NCBI GenBank assembly: GCA_963821325.1
Contig: CAWGDC010000001.1
Span: forward strand, 450,178-514,177
Reading direction: 5' to 3'
DNA from: an uncultured Actinomycetes bacterium
Lineage (GTDB): Bacteria > Actinomycetota > Acidimicrobiia > IMCC26256 > PALSA-555
Length of the DNA stretch: 64,000 nt
Shown here: positions 13,686 to 31,057 of the stretch, in pieces
Position numbering within the stretch: the first letter of the stretch is position 1
Layout of the letters: the number at the start of each line of letters is the position of its first letter
Translations under genes and position numbers: made by a program
Notes under the pieces: generated by a model
The model's database searches: none
Told to the model about the DNA's origin: nothing
Seen by the model: the letters and a program-made list of their open reading frames with translations, nothing else

Positions 13686-14177
13686 ATGGACGCGGAGCTC
13701 CACGGATCGCCGCCGGCGGAGACGTCGGCCGCGCCTCGGCCGTCCGTCCCGACCGACCGTGAGGGCCGGTTGCGGCATCGCCAGTGGGACTTGCTCGTCG
13801 CCGTCGGCGCGGGCGGCGCGCTCGGCACGTTGGGTCGCTACGAGTTGGGCCTCGCCATCCCGACACCCACGGGCAGCTTTCCGTGGGCCATCTTCATCGT
13901 CAACGTCACCGGCGCTCTCGTCTTGGGTTTCGCCGTGACCCTGGCCCTCGCCGGCATCGTCCCGAGTCGCTACGTACGGCCGGCCGTCGGCATCGGCTTC
14001 TGTGGCGGCCTGACCACGTTCTCAACCTGGATGGTGGACACCGTGAACCTCGGTAATGCGCACCATGCCGTGGCCGCCACGCTGAACGTCGTGGCAACGT
14101 TGACCACGGGACTGGTGGCGCTGTTCCTCGGCGTCGTGGCGGCACGACTCATCACGAGGCAAGGAGCCCGATCATGA
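13686..14177 (+). CDS. crcB: fluoride channel CrcB/FluC, copy 1
   Basis: ORF 13647..14177 was trimmed to in-frame ATG 13686 (GGGAGG 5-6 nt upstream), because ATG 13647 lies inside the riboswitch aptamer. Motifs: [34 protein letters not shown]. Confidence 0.85.
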
Positions 14178-14509
14178 ACAGCGAAGGATCCGCCGAGCGA
14201 CTCACGATCTTCGTCGGCGAAACCGACCGGCACGCTCACATGCCCTTGTACACGGAGATCGTGCACCGTGCGCATGCAGCGGGGCTTGCCGGCGCGACGG
14301 TGCTTCGCGGGATCGAAGGCTTCGGTGCGTCCAACCACGTGCATACGGCCCGGATCCTGCGCCTCAGCGAGGACCTGCCCGTCATGATCGTGATCGTCGA
14401 CACCCCCGAACGCCTCGACGCCTTCCTCCCTCAGCTCGACGATCTGATCAGCGAAGGACTCGTCATCCGCGAGCCCGTCGAGGTCGTCAAGTACGTGGGT
14501 CGCCCCTGA
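14174..14509 (+). CDS. DUF190 (PII-like) domain protein, commonly associated with crcB
   Basis: ORF 14174..14509 contains [11 protein letters not shown]...[28 protein letters not shown]. It has an ATGA overlap with crcB-1 and a TGATG overlap with crcB-2. Confidence 0.8.
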
Positions 14510-14874
14510 TGCCCGCCCTCGTCGCCCTCGCCGGCGGCTTCGGCGCCGTCGCGCGGTTCGTCCTCGACGGGCTCATTCAGGACCGCACGGACAGCCCGCT
14601 GCCGCTCGGCACCTTCGTGATCAACCTCACCGGCTCGTTCCTGCTCGGCGTGCTCTCGGGACTGGTCATCCACCACACGTTGAGTACCCATACCAAGCTG
14701 ATCGCCGGCACCGGTTTCCTCGGCGGCTACACGACCTTCTCGACCTTCGCCTACGAGACCTTCCAGCTCGCCGAAGACCGCGCCCGAGGCTTGGCCACGC
14801 TCAACATGGCCCTCAGCGTCGCCGCCGGGCTCGCGGCCGCAACGATCGGCCTGCTCGTGACCGGCGGGCTGTGA
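14509..14874 (+). CDS. crcB: fluoride channel CrcB/FluC, copy 2
   Basis: ORF 14509..14874 contains GGFGAVARF, FVINLTGSFLLG and GFLGGYTTFSTF. Confidence 0.9.
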   Translation: MPALVALAGGFGAVARFVLDGLIQDRTDSPLPLGTFVINLTGSFLLGVLSGLVIHHTLSTHTKLIAGTGFLGGYTTFSTFAYETFQLAEDRARGLATLNMALSVAAGLAAATIGLLVTGGL

Positions 14875-14966
14875 TCGGTACGTCAGCCGGCATCCGTCGC
14901 GTCGTGTCGCCGCATGCCCCCGGACTCCCCCTGGCGCCATGACCACCACCCGAGCAGCGTCGATCC

Positions 14967-15659
14967 ATGGGTGATCCCGACGCTGAGGAACGAGGCGCGG
15001 TGCAGCAGCTAGTCCGCGACCGGCTCGCCCGTCTCACCCGTGATGGTGTCACGACCGCCCGCCTCGACGGCAGCGTCCACCAGCTGTTCCCGGTCGCGCC
15101 GAACGCGAGGGAAGGCGCCGCGCTCCGCGACTGCGTGATCCAACTCCGAGCCGTCAAAACCGTTGAGGTGGGTCTCGGCTACGGCATCTCCGCCCTGTAC
15201 ATCTTCGACGGCCTGCTCAGCGGCGCCCGGGTCGCACCTCGCCATGTCGTCATCGACCCTCACCAGCGGACCAGGTTCGCCGACTGCGGGCTACAGCACC
15301 TCGACGATGCCGGCGTGCTGTCCATGGTTGACCACTACCGCGACGAATCGCAGATCGTCCTGCCGCGTCTGCTGCGAGAAGAGCGGGCCTTCGACCTCGC
15401 GTTTGTGGACGGCAACCACCGTTTCGACGGTGTCTTCCTCGACCTCGTCTACCTCGGACGGCTCGTCCAGCCGCAGGGAATCATCTTCCTCGACGACTAT
15501 CAGCTGCCCGCGGTGCGGCGTGCGGCGGCGTTCTTCGTGACGAATCTCGGCTGGACGCTGGAAGAGACGTCCCGCACGGACCAGCATCACGGGTGGGCAG
15601 TACTTCGAACAGCGCTCGGGCCAGATGCTCGCGCCTTCGACGACTTCGTCGAGTTCTAG
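14967..15659 (+). CDS. class I SAM-dependent methyltransferase (O-methyltransferase-like)
   Basis: ORF 14967..15659 contains VEVGLGYGISALYI (motif I-like) and FDLAFVDGNHRFDGVFLDLVYLGRLVQPQGIIFLDD. Confidence 0.7.
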   Translation: MGDPDAEERGAVQQLVRDRLARLTRDGVTTARLDGSVHQLFPVAPNAREGAALRDCVIQLRAVKTVEVGLGYGISALYIFDGLLSGARVAPRHVVIDPHQRTRFADCGLQHLDDAGVLSMVDHYRDESQIVLPRLLREERAFDLAFVDGNHRFDGVFLDLVYLGRLVQPQGIIFLDDYQLPAVRRAAAFFVTNLGWTLEETSRTDQHHGWAVLRTALGPDARAFDDFVEF

Positions 15660-15670
15660 TGACCATCGCC

Positions 15671-15695
15671 GAGCCTGAGCGCGTCCCTCAGGCTC
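15671..15695. terminator. hairpin between the convergent methyltransferase and nrdJ genes
   Basis: Perfect 9-bp stem GAGCCTGAG/CTCAGGCTC with 7-nt loop CGCGTCC, sitting between stop 15657-15659 (+) and stop 15699-15701 (-). There is no clear U-tract. Confidence 0.5.
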
Positions 15696-15698
15696 CGA

Positions 15699-18600
15699 TC
15701 AAGAGCAGCCGCTCGTCGCGCCGCAGCTCGGACAGGCATGGCACGAACCGGCGCGCTGCATGATGTCGCCGCACACGTAGCAAAGAACCACCTCGACATC
15801 ACGTCCCGTCGGGTTCACCGTCCCGGTCTCGACCGGTGCCGCGGTGAGGGCGGCCGACGGTGCCCGATCCTCCGGCGGCAGCACGTCGAAGCCGCCCTGG
15901 CTGGGCGTCGCGGCCTCCTCCACCCCGGGCAGCGTCGGCTGGAGGCGCTCGGACACCGTGAAGATCCCGAGGTCGGCGCGCTCGTCGACGGACAGGTACT
16001 CGACAGCAAGGCGCCGGAAGATGTAGTCGACGAGGCTCGTCGCGATCCGGATCTCGGGGTCGTCGGTGATACCAGCGGGCTCGAACCGCATGTTGGTGAA
16101 CATCTCGACGAACGCGCGGAGCGGGACGCCGTACTGCAAGCCGTGGCTCACCGAGATCGCGAAGGCATCCATGATCCCCGCCAGGGTCGAGCCCTGCTTG
16201 GCGACCTTCAGGAACACCTCGCCGGGGCGGCCGTCCTCGAACTCGCCCACCGTCGCGTAGCCGTGGCAGTCCGCGACCCGGAACGAGAACGTCTTCGAGG
16301 TGCGGGTGCGGGGCAGCTTCTGACGTACCGGGCTCTGCACGATGACGTGCTCGACGACCCGCTCCACCTGCTGGGCGAGCGCGCTCGACGCGCCGCCTTC
16401 CTCGGCGGCACCTTCCTTCTTCTGGGTCGCGAGGGGCTGGCCGACCTTGCAGTTGTCCCGGTAGAGGGCGATGGCCTTGATGCCGAGCTTCCACGAATCG
16501 AGGTAGAGCTGCTCGACCTCCTCGACCGTGGCGGACTCGGGCATGTTCGCCGTCTTCGAGATCGCACCGCTGATGAACGGCTGCACCGCCGCCATCATCT
16601 TCACGTGACCCATGTAGTGGATCGTGTTGTCACCCATCGAGCAGGCGAAGACCGGGAGATGCTCGGCCTTGAAGCGGGGCGCCCCGATGATCGTCTTGTG
16701 CTCGTCGATGTGACCGATGATCGCCGCCGCCTCGTCGTCGGAGTAGCCGAGCTTGGCGAGAGCGCGAGGCACCGTCTGGTTGACGATGAACATCGTGCCG
16801 CCGCCGACCAGCTTCTTCGCCTTCGTCAGCGCGAGATCGGGCTCGATCCCGGTCGTGTCGCAGTCGAGCGCGAGACCGATCGTCCCCGTCGGCGCGATGA
16901 CAACCGCCTGGGAGTTCCTGACACCGTGCGCCTCGGCAACCTCGACGGCGTCGTCCCACGCCCGTTGCGCCGCGCTGAGCAGATCGATCGGCACGCTGTC
17001 CTCGTCGATCTTGGCGACCTCGGCGCGGTGCATCCGCAGCACCTCGACCATCGGCTCGGCGTTCTCGGCGAAGCCGGCGAAGGGACCCATGCGGCGGGCC
17101 GTGCGGGCGCTCGTGGCGTAGGCGTGCCCGGTCATGAGCGCGGTGATCGTCCCCGCCCACGCGCGGCCCTCCGGTGAGTCGTACGGGAGACCCTGGGCCA
17201 TCAGCAGCGCGCCGAGGTTCGCGTAGCCGAGGCCGAGCTGGCGGAACCGACGCGTCGTCTCGGCGATCTTGTCCGTCGGGTAGTCGGCGTTGCCCACGAT
17301 GATCTCCTGGGCGGTGAACACCACCTCGACCGTCTGGCGGAACGCCTCGACGTCGAACGTGCCCTCGTCGTCGAGGTACTTCAGCAGGTTGATGCTCGCG
17401 AGGTTGCAGGCCGAATTGTCCAACGACATGTATTCTGAGCAGTTCCGCACAATTGTCCCATTTACTACGTAGCTGTGGTTCCGTGGCTCGCAGAGGTTGT
17501 ACGTGAGCTCGACGCCGTCGTCGCAACGCTCGACGAGGCGAACGGCATCGTGCCGGACGGAACAGCGGTGCCCGGCGATGCATCGAGCGAGCTTCGTCGA
17601 CTTCGACGGGATAGCGAACCCGATCACGTCGGCGAATCGCGGGATCGATTCGCCGGTGATGCGCAGGTCGAACATCGGCCCCGACACATAGTCGACCTGG
17701 GACCCGTCCTTACGTTCGTAGGTGAACGTCGACCGTGACCGGTTCGGCATCTCGTAGATCCGCGAGAAGATCCCGAACGTCGTCAAGAGCCGCTGCACGC
17801 CTCGCAGCAGCTCATCGGACGCCGACCCGAGCCCGACGTAGTGGCAGGTCCGCCCGTCGTAGACGCAGCCGTCCGCGTCGAACAGGCCCTGCAGGAAGGC
17901 GGCAACGACCTCGGTCGGTGCCTGGTAGATCGCGTGCGGCACCGTCTTCCCGCTGGCGCGCTCTCGGCTAACGCCGAGGGCTCCGAGGACGTCCCGGATC
18001 GCCCGCCGTCCGGCGCGCAACTGGACTGTGCCGTTGGCCTGCCGCGAGGGCTTCGCGAGCGTTCCGGTGATCGACGCCAGAAATTCGCGGTGTGCAGGAA
18101 GGACGTGCTCCTGCTCCTCGTCGCCGCCGTAGACGGTGACCGCGATGGCATCGGTGAGACAGCCGTCGCCGACGAGCCAGCCGAGGTAGTGCCCAAGCTC
18201 GGGGCTCCACTTCTCGGGGAGGCGCATGCCGCGTCGCTCGCGCAGGTCTCCGGCCAACGCCGGCCTCGAGCGCCGCGGACGGGAGCCGCCAGTCCGCGCT
18301 CGTGGCGGGTGCGGGGAGGTCGAGCACCTTGACCCGGTCGTCCGGGGTCAGCTCGGATGCGGCGACGTAGCCGCGGTTCGTGGTGAAGAGGGCGTGGTTG
18401 GGCGTGCAGCGCAGCTGCATCCCGTTCGAAAAGGTGAGCTTCACGATCTCGTTCATGCCGCGTGAGCATGACGGCGTCCGGGCGTGTCACCTCGACCCGT
18501 TGCGCCGGCGCGGTCGGGCTCGTGACGTCGTGCGTGTAGACGCCGACCACGTCGCCCTCTTGGGCCAGCTCGGACAAGCTCACCAAACCGCAGGAGCCCC

Positions 18601-19694
18601 CGGTCGGTGTGGACGAACTCGCTCGCGGGAAAGCAGGGGTTGCTGGCGGTGATGCGGCCCGAGTTGGGGACGGTGTGCCAGCGGTTGATCGTGGTGTCGT
18701 ACTGCATGCCCGGGTCGGCGCACTCCCAGGCAGCCTCGGCGATCTGGCGCATGAGGTCACGGGCCGGCACGGTGCGGAGGACCTCGCCGGTCGTGACCGC
18801 GAGGAGGTCCCAGTCGCGGTCCTCTTCCACGGCGCGCATGAACTCGTCAGTGACGCGGACCGAGTTGTTGGCGTTCTGGTACTGGACGGAGTGCGAGTCG
18901 AGGCCGTCGAGGTCCATGTCGAACCCGGCGTCGCGCAGGGCCCGCGCCTTGCGCTCCTCCCGCGCCTTGCACCAGACGAACTCTTCGATGTCGGGGTGGT
19001 CGACGTTGAGCACGACCATCTTCGCGGCGCGGCGGGTCTTGCCGCCCGACTTGATCGTCCCGGCGGACGCGTCGGCGCCGCGCATGAAGCTCACCGGGCC
19101 GCTGGCCGTGCCGCCACCGGCGAGGTTCTCCTGGGACGACCGGATCGTCGACAGGTTGATCCCGGACCCCGAGCCGCCCTTGAAGATGATGCCTTCCTCG
19201 CGGTACCAGTTGAGGATCCCGTCCATCGTGTCCTCGACGGACAGGATGAAGCACGCCGAGCCCTGGTTCGGGACGCCCTCGACGCCGATGTTGAACCAGA
19301 CCGGGCTGTTGAACGCGGCGCGCTGGTGCACGAGGATGTACTTCAGCTCGTTGCGGAACGCCGCGCCTTCCTGCTCGTCGACGAAGTAGCCGTCGCGCAC
19401 GCCCCACGCGGTGATGGTGTCGACGATGCGGTCGAGCACCTGGCGGAGGGACTGCTCACGGTCCGGGGTGCCGAGGGTGCCCCGGAAGTACTTCTGGGCG
19501 ACGATGTTCGTGGCGTTCTGCGACCAGCTGACCGGGAACTCGACGTCGGGCTGGAAGAAGGCGTCGGTGCCGTCCTTGTAGTTCGGGATCCGGGCGTCGC
19601 GGCGCTCCCACCCCACGGTGTCGTAGGGGTGCTCCCCGGGTCGGGTGAAGTACCGGCGGATCCCGATCCCGATCTGCTCCGGCGCGATGGCCAT
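15699..19694 (-). CDS. nrdJ: class II (adenosylcobalamin-dependent) ribonucleotide reductase NrdJ, interrupted by an intein; three frame disruptions inside the intein as sequenced
   Basis: The N-extein is ORF 18453..19715 (start more likely ATG 19692-19694, preceded by GGAGGGGGAGG): ...AQKYFRG...NSPVWFN...GSACFILSV...GGSGSGINLS...RITASNP. The C-extein lies in ORF 15699..18257 from CSEYMSLDNSACNLASINL... to the C-terminal Cys cluster CYVCGDIMQRAGSCHACPSCG. Confidence 0.9.
17442..18635 (-). mobile_element. NrdJ intein with LAGLIDADG homing-endonuclease domain (1194 nt as sequenced)
   Basis: It starts at Cys codon 18633-18635 (CFPASEFVHTD...), has a block-B-like RCTPNH, and LAGLIDADG motifs LGWLVGDGC and LQGLFDADGC. 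It ends ...NHSYVVNGTIVRN (Asn 17442-17444), followed by Cys+1 (17439-17441). The reading frame steps three times (~18573, ~18457, ~18255) but the exteins share one frame. Confidence 0.85.
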
Positions 19695-19743
19695 GCCGCT
19701 GACCTCCCCCTCCATGTCTGTGGCGTTCCAGAGGGCTCACCCA

Positions 19744-19759
19744 CCACTATATGTTGTGG
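19744..19759 (-). promoter_or_regulatory. NrdR-box-like palindrome upstream of nrdJ
   Basis: CCACTATATGTTGTGG (plus-strand reading) matches 13/16 positions of the NrdR box consensus acaCwAtATaTwGtgt as I remember it. It lies 50-65 nt upstream of the nrdJ ATG. A weak second site (10/16) sits 31 nt away at 19775-19790. Confidence 0.5.
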
Positions 19760-19840
19760 TCTGGGTTCCCCTGGGCACGAGATGCAGGGTGAATTACAGC
19801 ACTGCAACTCGTTGGCGTCAACCGCCGATTGTCGTCCCGG

Positions 19841-20326
19841 TCAGCGCCCGATGCGGGTCCGAGCCCGTTTGGGCTCGGTGGTCTTGCGGAGCTCGACGGC
19901 GGCCCGCTCGAAGTCCGCCGGGGACTCGAAGCCCTGGTAGACGGACGCGAACCGCAGGTACGAGACGGGGTCGAGGGCTCGGAGGCGCTCCAGGACGGCG
20001 AGGCCGAGGCGCTCGCTGCCCACCTCGGCGCCGGCGGCGCGCCCCTCCTCCTCGATGTCGGCGGCGAGGGCCTCGACGGCTCGAGGGTCGACGGGGCTGC
20101 CGGCGACGGCGCGCTCGATCCCCCGCTCGAGCTTGCGGCGCTCGAAGGGCTCGCGTTGGCCCGACCGCTTGATGACCATGAGGGGCAGCTCGACGACGCG
20201 CTCCTGGGTCGTGAACCGTCGACCGCAGGCCAGACATTCTCGGCGGCGGCGCACGGCCGATCCGTCGTCCCCGGGCCGGGAGTCGACGACCTTGTCGTCG
20301 TCGGCCTGGCAGAAGGGGCAGCGCAT
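19841..20326 (-). CDS. nrdR: transcriptional repressor NrdR
   Basis: ORF 19841..20362 was trimmed to ATG 20324-20326: MRCPFCQADDDKVVDSR...CLACGRRFTTQERV (zinc ribbon), followed by an ATP-cone (VIKRSGQREPFERRKL...). Confidence 0.92.
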   Translation of the reverse strand: MRCPFCQADDDKVVDSRPGDDGSAVRRRRECLACGRRFTTQERVVELPLMVIKRSGQREPFERRKLERGIERAVAGSPVDPRAVEALAADIEEEGRAAGAEVGSERLGLAVLERLRALDPVSYLRFASVYQGFESPADFERAAVELRKTTEPKRARTRIGR

Positions 20327-20376
20327 GCCGTCACGGTAACTCCACCGCCCGGAGGACGGCACTGAGGCTCAGCGGA

Positions 20377-20793
20377 TCAGGCGGGGCCGCGCAGGGTCTC
20401 GCCGGGAAGCAGGGGCCGGGAGCCGTTGAGGGCGACGAGCTCGTCGACGACGGGTCGGGGGTCGGCGCCCGGGTCGATGCGCTCGGCGATGGCCCAGAGC
20501 GTGTCGCCGGGTCGGACGACGATGGTGCGTGCCGAGATGAGGGTCGGGCTGCGCCCGGGAGCTCCGAGGGGAGAGCCCCCGAGCGCCGCGCCCGCCTGCC
20601 CCGCCACGACCACGGTCCCCAGTGCCAGCGCCGCGAGGACGACGCGCCGGCGTCGGAAGACCGTGGGGGATGTCCGGCGAGCGCGTGGGGTGGCAGCACG
20701 CGCCCCGCGCTGGTCGGCTCGGGTGAGCGCCAGCGGGGAGCCGGGGGTAGTCGTGGCGGTGGCCATATCTGCTCGAGTCGTCGGGTGGGTCAT
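20377..20793 (-). CDS. LysM domain-containing membrane-anchored protein (positional counterpart of the mycobacterial lexA-adjacent LysM gene)
   Basis: This is the tail of ORF 20377..21195 from ATG 20791-20793 (alternative ATG 20766). It has a TM segment, VVLAALALGTVVVAGQAGAAL, then a LysM-like VVRPGDTLWAIAERI...VVDELVALNG. It is divergent from lexA. Confidence 0.75.
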   Translation of the reverse strand: MTHPTTRADMATATTTPGSPLALTRADQRGARAATPRARRTSPTVFRRRRVVLAALALGTVVVAGQAGAALGGSPLGAPGRSPTLISARTIVVRPGDTLWAIAERIDPGADPRPVVDELVALNGSRPLLPGETLRGPA

Positions 20794-20844
20794 CGCCGGC
20801 ACCACACCACGGGGGTGTGACACCGGCCCGGTCCAGGCGGTGAC

Positions 20845-20925
20845 CGAACCTGTGTTCGTGTAGTGAACACCGAACGGGTGTTCGCTGTCAAGGTCGAACG
20901 GGTGTTTGCCCCGAACGCATGCTCG
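20845..20925. promoter_or_regulatory. array of four LexA (SOS) boxes in the lexA / LysM-gene divergent intergenic region
   Basis: CGAACCTGTGTTCG (20845-20858) and CGAACGGGTGTTCG (20871-20884) are perfect GAAC-N4-GTTC sites. CGAACGGGTGTTTG (20895-20908) and CGAACGCATGCTCG (20912-20925) each have one mismatch. Confidence 0.8.
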
Positions 20926-20940
20926 TGTTACCGTCCCACC

Positions 20941-21567
20941 ATGACTGACCTGACGCCCCGGCAGCAGCAAGTCCTCGAGTTCATCGACCAGGAGGTCCGA
21001 CAGCGCGGGTACCCGCCGAGCGTGCGGGAGATCGGCGAGGCCGTCGGCCTGTCGTCCAGCTCGACGGTGCACGCCCACCTCGCGGCCCTGCAGGACAAGG
21101 GGTATCTGCGTCGTGACCCGACGAAGCCCCGGGCCCTCGAGCTGCACTTCGCGTCGGCGTCGGGTGGCGCCGCCGAGCGGCGTCCCGTCCGCCATGTGCC
21201 GCTCGTCGGCGACGTCGCGGCCGGCACGGGCGTGCTCGCGGTCGAGAACGTCGAGGAGACCGTCCCCATGCCGGAGGACTTCACCGGCGCGGGCCAGCTC
21301 TTCATGGTCCGGGTGCGGGGCGACTCGATGATCGAGGCCGGCATCCTCGACGGCGACTACGTCGTCGTCCGCCAGCAGCCGACGGCGGAGGCCGGCGAGA
21401 TCGTCGTGGCGGGCATCCCCGGTGAGGAGGGCACGGTGAAGACGTTCCTTCGCCGCCGCGGGAAGATCGTGCTGCGACCCGAGAACCCGGCGCTCGACGA
21501 GATGGTCTACGACCCGGATGACGTCACGATCTACGGCAAGGTCGTCTCGCTGCTGCGCCGGTTCTGA
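20941..21567 (+). CDS. lexA: SOS repressor LexA
   Basis: ORF 20863..21567 was trimmed to ATG 20941: MTDLTPRQQQVLEFIDQEVRQRGYPPSVREIGEAVGLSSSSTVHAHLAALQDKGYL (winged HTH), followed by the S24 peptidase region ...VRGDSMIEAGILDGDYVVV...TVKTF. Confidence 0.95.
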   Translation: MTDLTPRQQQVLEFIDQEVRQRGYPPSVREIGEAVGLSSSSTVHAHLAALQDKGYLRRDPTKPRALELHFASASGGAAERRPVRHVPLVGDVAAGTGVLAVENVEETVPMPEDFTGAGQLFMVRVRGDSMIEAGILDGDYVVVRQQPTAEAGEIVVAGIPGEEGTVKTFLRRRGKIVLRPENPALDEMVYDPDDVTIYGKVVSLLRRF

Positions 21568-21588
21568 TCCGCGCCGCGGGCGCGACGC

Positions 21589-22419
21589 TCAGACCGCGAT
21601 GCCGTGCTCGCGGAGGATGTCGTTGAGGCGCGCCTTCTCGTAGCGCTCACCCTCGGTGAGGTGCCGCACGATGAGCAGGCACGGCAACCCGAACTCGCCG
21701 CCGGGGTAGCGGCGCGGGCGGGTGGCCTGCATGCCGACGCACCAGTCCGGGACGACGCCCCGGGCGAGCTCGTCGCCGGTCTCGGCGTCGATGACGGGGA
21801 TGCCCGGGTTCAACAGGACGCCCTCGCCGAGCACGCAGCCCTTCCCGACGCGGGCGCCTTGGGTGATCATGCTGCGGCTCCCGACGAGGGAGTCGTCGCC
21901 GATGATGACGGGGCTGGCTTGGGGCGGTTCGAGGACCCCGCCGATCCCGACCCCGCCGGAGAGATGGACCCGGGCCCCGATCTGGGCGCAGGACCCGACG
22001 GTGGCCCAGGTGTCCACCATCGTGTCGGGGCCGACGTACGCGCCGATGTTCACGTAGCTCGGCATCAGGATGGAGCCGCGCCCGATGTACGAGCCCCATC
22101 GTGCGGACCCGCCGGGGACGACGCGGACGCCGGCGTCCTCGTAGTGGTGCTTGAGCGGGATCTTGTCGGCGTACTCGAACGGTCCGAGCTCGGTCGTCTC
22201 CATGCGCGCCAGGCGGAAGAGCAGGAGGATCGCCTGCTTGAGCCACTCGTGGACGACGACCTGTCCGTCGACGACCTCGGCGACGCGGGCCTCGCCGGCG
22301 TCGAGCCGGTCGATCGCGGCGTAGACGACCTCTCGGGCTTCGGCCTCGCTCGCGGTGCTGCGGGTGAGGTCCTCGCGCCGCTCCCAGAGCGTGGCGATGC
22401 GTGGGGCGAGGTCGTCCAC
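21589..22419 (-). CDS. dapD: 2,3,4,5-tetrahydropyridine-2,6-dicarboxylate N-succinyltransferase
   Basis: ORF 21589..22419 has hexapeptide-repeat left-handed beta-helix motifs (GARVHLSGGVGIGGVLEPPQASPVIIGDDSLVGSRSMITQGARVGKGCVLGEGV) and a typical actinobacterial DapD N-terminal domain. Confidence 0.85.
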   Translation of the reverse strand: MDDLAPRIATLWERREDLTRSTASEAEAREVVYAAIDRLDAGEARVAEVVDGQVVVHEWLKQAILLLFRLARMETTELGPFEYADKIPLKHHYEDAGVRVVPGGSARWGSYIGRGSILMPSYVNIGAYVGPDTMVDTWATVGSCAQIGARVHLSGGVGIGGVLEPPQASPVIIGDDSLVGSRSMITQGARVGKGCVLGEGVLLNPGIPVIDAETGDELARGVVPDWCVGMQATRPRRYPGGEFGLPCLLIVRHLTEGERYEKARLNDILREHGIAV

Positions 22420-28927: not shown

Positions 28928-31057
28928 CTAGGAGTCGACCTCGGCGGGTTCGGTGGTCTCCTCGGTGACGTCGACGGAGTCGTCGTCGTCGAGGCCGACG
29001 GCGGCCCGGATCTTCTCGCTGATCTGGACCATCACGTCGACGTTCTCGGTGAGGAACTGCTTGGCGTTCTCGCGGCCTTGGCCGAGCTGCTCGCCTTCGT
29101 ACGTGTACCAGGCGCCGGACTTCTTGGCGATGCCGAGGTCGACGGCGACGTCGAGCAGGGATCCTTCCCGGCTGATGCCGCGTCCGTACATGATGTCGAA
29201 CTCGGCCTGCTTGAACGGGGCGCTGACCTTGTTCTTCACGACCTTGACGCGGGTGCGGTTCCCGACGACCTCGGCACCGTCCTTGATCGATTCGACGCGG
29301 CGGATGTCGAGGCGCACGGACGAGTAGAACTTCAACGCCCGGCCGCCGGGGGTTGTCTCGGGGCTGTTGTGCACGACGACACCGTCGGCGAGGTAGTTGT
29401 GGCTGCCCTCGACTTCCAGGTCGAAGCGATGCATCGACCGCGTCGGCGGCTTCACCGCGATCCGCTCGATCGGGAGGGGCATCAACTCGTAGCGTGGCGT
29501 CACGAGCTGTGGGGCGACCGCGAACCGGCCGCGGTACCGGGGCAGCAGCTTGTACTCCATCGAGGGATGCACGAACGGTGCGATCAGGGCGTGGAGCTTG
29601 GCGGTCTCGTCTTTCGAGAAGCTGAGGTATGCCTGACCACGTGAGCCTCGCGGCGTCAGCGTAGGAGTGATCCCCCATGTGTCGCGGAGGTGGTCGACGA
29701 GGCGTTGGCGCGTCGTGGTCTCCATCGCCTCGATGCAGATCTCGGAGTGTCCGCTGCCGTCACGAGTGCGTTCCTGGCGCCCGGCTGCCCGGAGCGAGAA
29801 CGAGCCGTCGTCCATGTACCAGAGCGCGAGGGCAAGCGGGGTGAGGTGCTTCAGGTAGTCGTGGCTGAACGCCTTCTTGCCGTCGACGTAGACCGCTCGG
29901 CGTAGTTCGGCGAGCTCAGGGAGCGGTCGGACGTCGACGCGGGAGACGCCGTCGTCGCGCCGCGCCGACCGGCTGACACCGATGTTCTCGAAGAGCGTTG
30001 CCTTCCACTCGCAGTAGTCCGCCTGCTTCGGACCGTGACTGAAGCGGAAGCGCGCGCCGTGGCCGGATCGGGTCGGTGAGAGAGCCCCGTCGCCCATGAG
30101 CGAACCGAGAATGACCTCCCACTGGAAGTTGGACAGGTAGACGGGTACAGCTTGGAGTACCCGGTCGCCGGGCCGGAGGTCTTGAGCTTCTCGCCAGCCG
30201 GCCGGTGTCCGGATGCGGTGGTTGGCCGTCACGCCGAACTGGGCCTTGCCGTTCTTGCCCGGCTTCGCGACGGTGAACTGGAGGAACTGGTCAGTCGGGC
30301 CATTGTCGAACCAGTTGGTCACCTTCTTCGGCACGACCGCGCCCTGGTCGGGGTCGTACGAGAGGACCTCCACGGGGAGACGCTGATTCACGACCTTGCC
30401 GATCTTCTCTTGCGAGCCGTCCGCCAGGGTCACCCGCGTGTTGTAGGTGCAGCACCCGTAGATGACGCCGATCTTCTCCCGCAGCTGGTTGATGAACACG
30501 CAGATGGTGCGGGAGCGGTTGAGGTTGGCGGTGAGCTTGCGCAGCGCCTGGCTCATGAGCCGGGCTTGGAGGCCGACGTGGGTGTCGCCCATCTCGCCTT
30601 CGATCTCGGCGCGGGGGACGAGCGCGGCGACGGAGTCGATGACGACGACGTCGAGCGCGCTGGAGCGGATGAGCATGTCGGCGATCTCGAGGCCTTGCTC
30701 GCCGGTGTCGGGCTGGGAGATGTACAGGTCGTCGACGTTCACCCCGATCGCGGCGGCGTAGACCGGGTCCATGGCGTGCTCGGCGTCGATGTAGGCGCAG
30801 ACCCCGCCGTTGCGCTGGGCTTCGGCGACGACGTGCATGGCGAGCGTCGACTTGCCCGAGGCTTCGGGACCGAAGATCTCGACGACGCGGCCGCGTGGGA
30901 GGCCGCCGATGCCGAGCGCGAGGTCGAGGGCGAGGGCACCGGTGGAGATGGCCTCGACGCCGACGTTGCCCCGCTCGCCGAGGCGCATGATGGCGCCCTT
31001 CCCGTACTGCTTCTCGATCTGGCCGACGGCCATGTCGAGCGCCTGCTTGCGTTCCAC
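28928..31057 (-). CDS. recA: recombinase RecA, interrupted by an intein
   Basis: ORF 28928..31621 was trimmed to GTG 31055-31057 (AGGAGG 6 nt upstream): [27 protein letters not shown]...[14 protein letters not shown]...[12 protein letters not shown]...REKIGVIYG | intein | [23 protein letters not shown]... The upstream 188 codons of the ORF are Arg-rich junk. Confidence 0.95.
29366..30454 (-). mobile_element. RecA intein with LAGLIDADG homing-endonuclease domain (363 codons, single intact frame)
   Basis: Cys1 codon is 30452-30454 ([14 protein letters not shown]...). Block B is [10 protein letters not shown], and the LAGLIDADG motifs are [11 protein letters not shown] and [11 protein letters not shown]. 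It ends ...[11 protein letters not shown] (Asn 29366-29368), followed by Ser+1. The insertion point is between ...IGV(I/M)(Y/F)G and SPETT. Confidence 0.9.

Follow-up and report, generated by a model that had tools for sequence, protein, structure and literature searches.

A LAGLIDADG-containing intein at the radical-cysteine site of a class II ribonucleotide reductase from an acidimicrobial genome, with three frame breaks that are probably consensus errors

In the genome assembly of an uncultured actinobacterium of the class Acidimicrobiia (GenBank GCA_963821325.1), the gene nrdJ lies on the minus strand at positions 19715–15699 of the 64,000-nucleotide stretch of contig CAWGDC010000001.1 that was analyzed here (the window, whose positions are used as coordinates throughout). 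Very probably, this gene carries a genuine mobile intein directly N-terminal to the thiyl-radical cysteine of the encoded ribonucleotide reductase (RNR), and three breaks in the reading frame of the intein are consensus errors. In what follows, the genome carrying the window is designated G000 and the comparison genomes are designated by the codes G001–G011.

The insert and its site in NrdJ

The insert (18635–17442, 1194 nt as sequenced) begins with CFPASEF (18615–18635) and separates an N-extein that ends in ...RITASNP (18636–18656) from a C-extein that begins with CSEYMS (17424–17441), namely CSEYMSLDNSACNL. A first-pass annotation of the same DNA had described a 1194-nt element at 17442–18635 with an initial Cys, a TPNH motif, two LAGLIDADG motifs and a terminal ...VVNGTIVRN before Cys+1, all of which were located. 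The features of the insert and of its host gene are as follows:

17442–18635, minus strand: intein with a LAGLIDADG homing endonuclease, 1194 nt as sequenced and 1191 nt (397 aa) minus three extra bases (PF14528, PF14890, TIGR01445)
18633–18635, minus strand: Cys1, the N-terminal splice nucleophile in block A, invariant in 115 aligned inteins, this one included
18394–18405, minus strand: block B, TPNH (T-x-x-H), in the third frame as sequenced; RCT..H is kept at ≥90% in the intein family
18159–18185, minus strand: first LAGLIDADG motif, LGWLVGDGC; G-W-L-x-G-D-G is invariant in alignment A1 and forms a helix in the AlphaFold2 model
17865–17894, minus strand: second LAGLIDADG motif, LQGLFDADGC; F-D-A-D-G-C is invariant (PF14528, E=2.9e-20)
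17442–17489, minus strand: blocks F/G, EPRNHSYVVNGTIVRN, whose last residue is the C-terminal Asn, preceded by Arg; EPRNHS and the terminal N are invariant
17439–17441, minus strand: Cys+1, the C-extein nucleophile and RNR thiyl-radical cysteine, aligned with residue 322 of T. maritima NrdJ (1XJE)
18636–19715, minus strand: NrdJ N-extein, 360 aa from the ATG at 19715 (alternative ATG at 19694), with PF08471 and PF02867 profile positions 1–213
15699–17441, minus strand: NrdJ C-extein, 580 aa and a TGA stop, with PF02867 positions 212–523 and PF12637; it comprises the rest of the barrel, the TSCPD domain and a Cys-rich tail

The RNR barrel family PF02867 of Pfam is found on both pieces of nrdJ and is interrupted by the insert at profile positions 213/212, and the class II N-terminal domain (PF08471), LAGLIDADG_3 and TSCPD are matched as well. 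The N-extein is 92% identical to that of G002 and, at the nucleotide level, 96% identical to the metagenome contig L030. As stated in the first-pass annotation, the two exteins share one frame (19715–18257 = 1458 = 3×486), and when joined they form a 940-aa protein that scores 1410 bits against the NCBIfam NrdJ equivalog NF005122 (cut-off 859), covering positions 20–960 of 960. The spliced protein would contain the catalytic N-x-C-x-E loop and the redox Cys, since its NPCSE and ACNL segments align with T. maritima NrdJ at 320–324 and 333, respectively. The host gene is identified by these matches as encoding a class II (adenosylcobalamin-dependent) ribonucleotide reductase, NrdJ.

The insert itself is classified by its sequence hallmarks, which are complete except for the penultimate His, as a class 1 intein (Hint domain) with a nested double-LAGLIDADG homing endonuclease. 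When corrected for the three extra bases, it can be aligned gap-free with the inteins that NrdJ homologs carry at this site (75–83% amino acid identity; 83% to the G002 intein), reaches 31.4 bits against TIGR01445 (intein_Nterm, cut-off 24.5), and matches the NrdJ-1 intein and VMA inteins in a sequence search of the Protein Data Bank (PDB). A chance origin is excluded by the LAGLIDADG_3 match (E=3e-20), the intein_Nterm score above its cut-off, and homologous NrdJ inteins with E-values down to 1e-197.

The endonuclease part was modeled with AlphaFold2 from its uninterrupted 268-aa portion (18245–17442) and a 36-row alignment. The mean predicted local distance difference test (pLDDT) score of the model is 84 and exceeds 90 over residues 10–230. 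The model contains the alpha-beta-beta-alpha-beta-beta-alpha pseudo-dimer fold, and Foldseek matches it to the TliVMA intein, PI-PfuI, PI-SceI and I-DmoI (template modeling score 0.72 on the target). Both LAGLIDADG helices end in an acidic catalytic residue (in G-D-G and D-A-D-G, respectively) that is invariant in the alignment. Confidence is low for the last 35 residues. They form the Hint domain jointly with the N-terminal half, which the fragment lacks, so that a poor score is expected there.

The position of the insert was defined by a HMMER alignment to T. maritima NrdJ (1XJE), which is gap-free from residue 273 and places Cys+1 at residue 322 and the Cys of ACNL at residue 333. Cys+1 also corresponds to residue 429 of human RRM1 (3HNC), with an offset that was counted by hand from the printed 6L3R alignment and the match ranges. 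We take residue 322 of the T. maritima enzyme and residue 429 of the human enzyme to be the thiyl-radical cysteine, and residue 333 to be one of the redox pair. A search of the literature collection at hand on actinobacterial NrdJ inteins and T. maritima Cys322 returned nothing; the designation of Cys322 as the radical cysteine is background, combined here with the alignment. The site just before the catalytic Cys is the most frequent position for contiguous inteins in class I and II RNRs (Dassa et al., 2009; PMC2677866). Thus, the intein occupies the classic and best-known RNR intein site.

The flanking segments, which had been described in the first-pass annotation as contiguous in intein-free NrdJ proteins, are indeed contiguous in 11 relatives with an empty site, and the solved NrdJ structure 7B9P reads SNPCSEYM; four alleles are occupied. 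The alignment of orthologs contradicts the view that the 397 aa are a regular NrdJ domain. The proposal that the insert is an ordinary lineage-specific domain of NrdJ, in favor of which no point was found, is refuted by the empty alleles within the genus, the intein and LAGLIDADG profile matches, and the fold matches to intein endonucleases, and its probability is practically nil.

The Cys-rich tail CYVCGDIMQRAGSCHACPSCGATSGCS at the C-terminus of NrdJ (15702–15782) is almost invariant among homologs and resembles the zinc-finger tail known from many class II RNRs. On the other side of nrdJ, the directly upstream position of nrdR, also given in the first-pass annotation, is borne out by two domain matches:

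19841–20362, minus strand: nrdR, encoding a repressor with a Zn-ribbon (PF22811, E=2e-21) and an ATP-cone (PF03477, E=3.5e-15), directly upstream of nrdJ

The spacer between nrdR and nrdJ contains the palindrome CCACAACATATAGTGG (19744–19759, minus strand), which resembles the NrdR-box consensus, and a weaker GTG-N8-CAC element at 19788–19803, 44 nt from the palindrome. Such a putative NrdR box would put nrdJ under the control of NrdR.

Frame breaks in the Hint domain

The insert is not a single open reading frame (ORF): its coding sequence is read as 18635–18571, 18569–18461, 18459–18247 and then 18245–17442. The Hint part spans three successive frames, every step is +1, and the frame of TPNH differs from that of Cys1 and of the LAGLIDADG motifs. 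Because the three +1 steps total three bases, the exteins return to a common frame. Under translation table 11, a first ORF of 420 aa (19715–18453) reads ...RITASNP-CFPASEFVHTDRGLLRFGEL, continues as nonsense and ends at a TGA, and a second ORF of 852 aa in the same frame (18257–15699) starts within the insert and runs through ...VVNGTIVRN and the C-extein to the end of NrdJ. The breaks are located as follows:

18570–18571, minus strand: extra base 1, a +1 step; present in neither G002 nor the independent contig L030
18460–18461, minus strand: extra base 2, a +1 step; present in neither G002 nor L030; its removal restores the conserved MLTG(M/L)NEIV
18242–18246, minus strand: extra base 3, a +1 step, the exact base being ambiguous within 5 nt; not present in G002; its removal gives LEAGVGRRLRERRGMRLPEKW, which aligns with homologs
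18453–18455, minus strand: TGA stop that closes the extein frame in the sequence as given

As a consequence of these breaks, nrdJ as sequenced cannot yield a spliceable precursor. The first-pass annotation had hinted at a need for error correction and had left the three breaks themselves implicit.

Two comparators bear on the nature of the breaks. The same-site intein of G002 is 83.7% identical to the window at the nucleotide level over 1500 nt, and the alignment contains exactly three gaps, each corresponding to one extra base in the window. L030, a 95%-identical contig from an independent metagenome of the Joint Genome Institute (JGI), maintains an uninterrupted frame over intein codons 1–95, without the bases at 18571 and 18461; its identity to the window is 96% in the N-extein, 97% in the intergenic spacer and nrdR stretch, and 88% in the intein part. 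When the two shifted segments are read in the corrected frames, substitutions relative to G002 number 6/4/11 and 3/3/24 at codon positions 1/2/3. Since substitutions are mainly on third codon positions, the corrected frames have been under purifying selection up to the present.

The assembly consists of 6 contigs and reaches only 82.5% marker completeness. Frame changes were counted with intact ORFs of G002 as probes, with a G+C content above 0.8 at third codon positions (GC3) and below 0.62 at second codon positions (GC2) required on both sides in the query ORF. In the 120 kb around the window, 16 well-supported frame changes were found, compared with 3 in the reverse comparison. When the frame pairs were read by hand, 11 of the 16 proved to be +1, so that three consecutive +1 steps are unremarkable. 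Apart from those in nrdJ, frame changes occur at ~39, 293, 2457, 35003, 38114, 45810, 49512, 52598 and 55029, in genes that are intact and of high GC3 in G002, and seven more lie just outside the window. These scattered changes indicate residual indel errors across the assembly. Three breaks are also clustered within 1 kb at the start of the window, in an intein-free gene. An extra T relative to L030 is present at 19835, 6 nt downstream of the nrdR stop codon.

Several other approaches were set aside. A naive tblastn count (28 versus 19 frame changes in the two directions) was confounded because stop-to-stop ORFs run on out of frame at 68% G+C, and a count of gaps that are not multiples of three in blastn alignments at 84% identity was uninformative because of many paired alignment artifacts. 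The protein P0006, whose ORF starts inside the intein, was rejected as an instance of a shared frameshift, because its contig ends there with different indels of its own. A search for a repeat elsewhere in the genome that matches the intein DNA found none, so that misassembly through repeats is excluded, and a search of 14000–22000 against Rfam gave only a sub-threshold asX3 match within the intein coding sequence, which was taken as chance.

Taken together, the three breaks, all of which lie in the N-terminal third of the intein, are most likely consensus errors and not biological, and their source would be an error-prone, probably long-read, metagenome assembly. Three points weigh against the reading of a genuine intein with erroneous bases. 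First, the three breaks fall within 325 nt of an otherwise clean stretch of ~32 kb, a tighter cluster than errors at a uniform rate would be expected to form. Second, the third site (~18246) is covered solely by the 84%-identical G002 and not by the 95%-identical contig. Third, the penultimate His of block G is absent and is replaced by Arg. Across the 115 inteins the penultimate residue is R, A, S or M and never His, a family-wide trait, and inteins without a penultimate His are known to splice (PMC4031507); thus, the missing His is probably a variant and not a failure. With regard to the clustering, the intein may vary between strains in the sampled populations and thereby degrade the assembly locally.

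A related explanation is that the consensus at 18246–18570 mixes strain variants that occur together (alleles that carry or lack the intein, or divergent intein alleles) into a chimera, in which case the local errors would stem from population heterogeneity and not from plain read noise. Intein-bearing and intein-free alleles coexist within the genus, the identity of L030 drops to 88% in the intein part from 96% in the adjoining extein, and the independent contigs L002 and L030 both end in the N-terminal part of the intein. However, the rest of the intein (17442–18245) is free of breaks, and the other cluster of three breaks is in an intein-free gene. A chimera, to which we assign only a small probability, would moreover refine the artifact reading without implying different biology. 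Of these two contigs, which were obtained from different samples than the window, L002 (1–135) and L030 (to window position 18350) break off within the first ~100 codons of this intein family, and L002 has indels of its own, which suggests that the N-terminal intein region is hard to assemble, perhaps through strain heterogeneity.

If the three insertions were real, nrdJ would be a recently inactivated pseudogene, and the organism would live on an unassembled RNR or on salvaged deoxynucleosides. The stop at 18453 in the given sequence and the unusual clustering of the breaks fit this proposal, and a second RNR may be missing from a genome that is 82.5% complete. In the assembly as it stands, at that completeness, only one PF02867 gene was found, with no NrdD and no class I small subunit, in agreement with the earlier suggestion that nrdJ may be the main RNR. 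A truly broken nrdJ would be hard to survive, because it is the only RNR found. In a search with the NrdJ protein, nrdJ was likewise the only RNR large subunit seen in genomes of the same genus, whereas more distant genomes have a second. In addition, the exteins are intact and 92–96% identical to those of relatives, the 95%-identical contig has an intact frame, and the third-position bias shows that the corrected frames were selected until essentially now. Similar breaks affect ~15% of the genes in the region, which fits error and not decay. A pseudogene is therefore improbable.

Programmed +1 frameshifting, or readthrough of in-frame TGA codons, deserves still less weight and is scarcely credible. 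In its favor are the uniform +1 direction of the three steps and the fact that the extein frame meets no stop other than TGA. However, at 68% G+C an out-of-frame stop is expected to be TGA, insertion-type breaks predominate across the assembly, the three sites have no motif in common, and close relatives encode the same peptide in a single frame.

Distribution of the intein and other inteins in the genome

A search with the intein residues alone returned 1546 proteins at E≤0.001. The best 120 of these include the window's own 852-aa ORF (P0005, 100%); all others among them carry PF02867, and the source names of the best 120 are mostly metagenome-assembled genomes of Acidimicrobiia or Acidimicrobiales. 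From the 119 listed matches other than P0005, at least 114 inteins were extracted, all at [AG]SNP/CSEY[MLV] (the slash marks the insertion point) and 379–407 aa in length. Cys1, VHTD.GL, YTHD, RCT..H (block B), LPEKW, GWLxGDG, GLFDADGC, EPRNHSY (block F) and the terminal Asn are conserved in the 114 extracted inteins.

Among the genomes of the genus with a readable site, it is occupied in G001, G002 and G010, each with a single open frame of 1345–1364 aa, and empty in G004, G007, G008, G009 and G011, which read straight through. In a tree of the exteins, G000, G001 and G002 form a clade with 100% support and the intein-free G009 as sister, and G010 is the sole carrier in the other subclade. 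This placement of the carriers implies at least two gains or losses within the genus. In an even sample of the class, 15 of 200 genomes (~7%) have a homolog at E≤1e-30, always inside very long open frames, and the carriers belong to more than 10 families and, with this genome counted, to 15 of 102 genera. Elsewhere in nrdJ, near extein residues 220, 547 and 650, inteins are found in other relatives. This distribution is that of the usual cycle of homing and loss.

G009 carries a full intein-free nrdJ (G009:C83) and a second, partial nrdJ (G009:C84; 80% identical, residues 339–940) that follows the C-terminal half of this intein; either two strains were binned together or two copies are present. 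In the first 10 codons of the C-extein (17412–17441), this genome and G002 use the A/T-ending synonymous codons GAA, TTG, AAT and TAT, whereas all empty-site alleles have GAG, CTC and AAC. These junction codons could be a co-conversion tract from an intein donor, or could provide protection against the endonuclease.

At least four inteins are present in the 3.7-Mb genome. A second intein in the window lies in recA at 29366–30454 (RecA region 28928–31057), with a C-terminal PF14890 match at 29366–29428 (G000:C1:479543-479605). Outside the window, a SufB intein is located at G000:C1:922964-924076 (...TAQYE/CLRGS...VVHN/SEVVYH) and an intein of a PhoH-like ATPase at G000:C2:~679274 (...VTHN/TLNDSFIILDEAQN), the interior of which also looks frame-damaged.

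Proposed splicing and homing, and comparison with known inteins

Splicing of the NrdJ intein would follow the class 1 pathway (Mills et al., 2014; PMC4031507). A precursor of ~1337 aa would be translated, and an N–S acyl shift at Cys1, aided by the Thr and His of block B (TPNH), would generate a thioester. Attack on this thioester by Cys+1 would transfer the N-extein to Cys+1 by trans-thioesterification, after which the terminal Asn would cyclize, without the help of a penultimate His, and release the intein. A final S–N shift would restore the peptide bond to yield the 940-aa NrdJ with its SNP-CSEY active-site loop. The precursor should be inactive, because the N-P-C-S-E loop exists only after splicing. 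The released intein or the precursor may in turn cut intein-free nrdJ alleles at AACCCN/TGCTCNGAGTAC, and the intein would be copied in by repair. The endonuclease presumably recognizes AACCCN/TGCTCNGAGTACATG, which is conserved in empty alleles, and such homing fits the patchy distribution among relatives.

Since no other RNR was found in the genome, the synthesis of deoxyribonucleoside triphosphates (dNTPs) would depend on splicing. It is tempting to speculate that splicing provides a post-translational switch for the sole RNR and that the intein could be retained for that and not only as a parasite. Splicing could be slow and sensitive to redox state or cofactor, and thereby gate dNTP synthesis, because the junction is flanked by Cys1 and by Cys+1, which is to become the thiyl-radical Cys, in a family without a penultimate His. 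Such a switch is, on balance, unlikely.

The intein is an ordinary member of a well-known kind that is common in its class, and its three frame steps are the only peculiarity. Its significance beyond annotation is small. The region should be annotated as one intein-containing nrdJ rather than divided into two or three ORFs or labeled a pseudogene, with a flag on the three frame breaks as probable consensus errors. The case illustrates cleanly how assembly quality alone can make an essential gene look broken. The intein family may also provide material for studies of splicing, namely a Cys1/Cys+1 intein without a penultimate His at the radical cysteine of an RNR, with occupied and empty alleles in one genus, which would extend well-known biology.

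Among known systems, the contiguous "RIR1" inteins of RNRs (InBase; PMC2677866) share with this intein the host protein (the catalytic subunit of class I or II RNRs), the insertion point, the catalytic Cys as the +1 residue and a nested endonuclease. By contrast, the present intein belongs to a lineage-specific sequence family, which is of Acidimicrobiia type according to the source names, and its family has Arg or Ala rather than His at the penultimate position. PI-PfuI, the endonuclease of the Pyrococcus furiosus RNR intein (PDB 1DQ3), is likewise a double-LAGLIDADG enzyme of an RNR intein and is matched by Foldseek at E=2.8e-9, although the identity over the aligned fold is 21% and its host is archaeal. 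NrdJ-1 (PDB 8UBS; Dassa et al., 2009), a split intein known from ocean metagenomes, also resides in NrdJ, and no PDB sequence matches the present intein better than the N-terminal Hint half of NrdJ-1 does (E=2e-9). However, NrdJ-1 is split, lacks a nested endonuclease, and follows the catalytic Cys, which places its insertion point one residue closer to the C-terminus (PMC2677866). Finally, the TliVMA and PhoVMA inteins (PDB 7QSS, 7QSU and 7QST) and PI-SceI combine Hint and LAGLIDADG domains in the same way and are the best structural matches, with E-values down to 9e-13, whereas their host is the V-ATPase subunit A and their identity to the present intein is ~20%.

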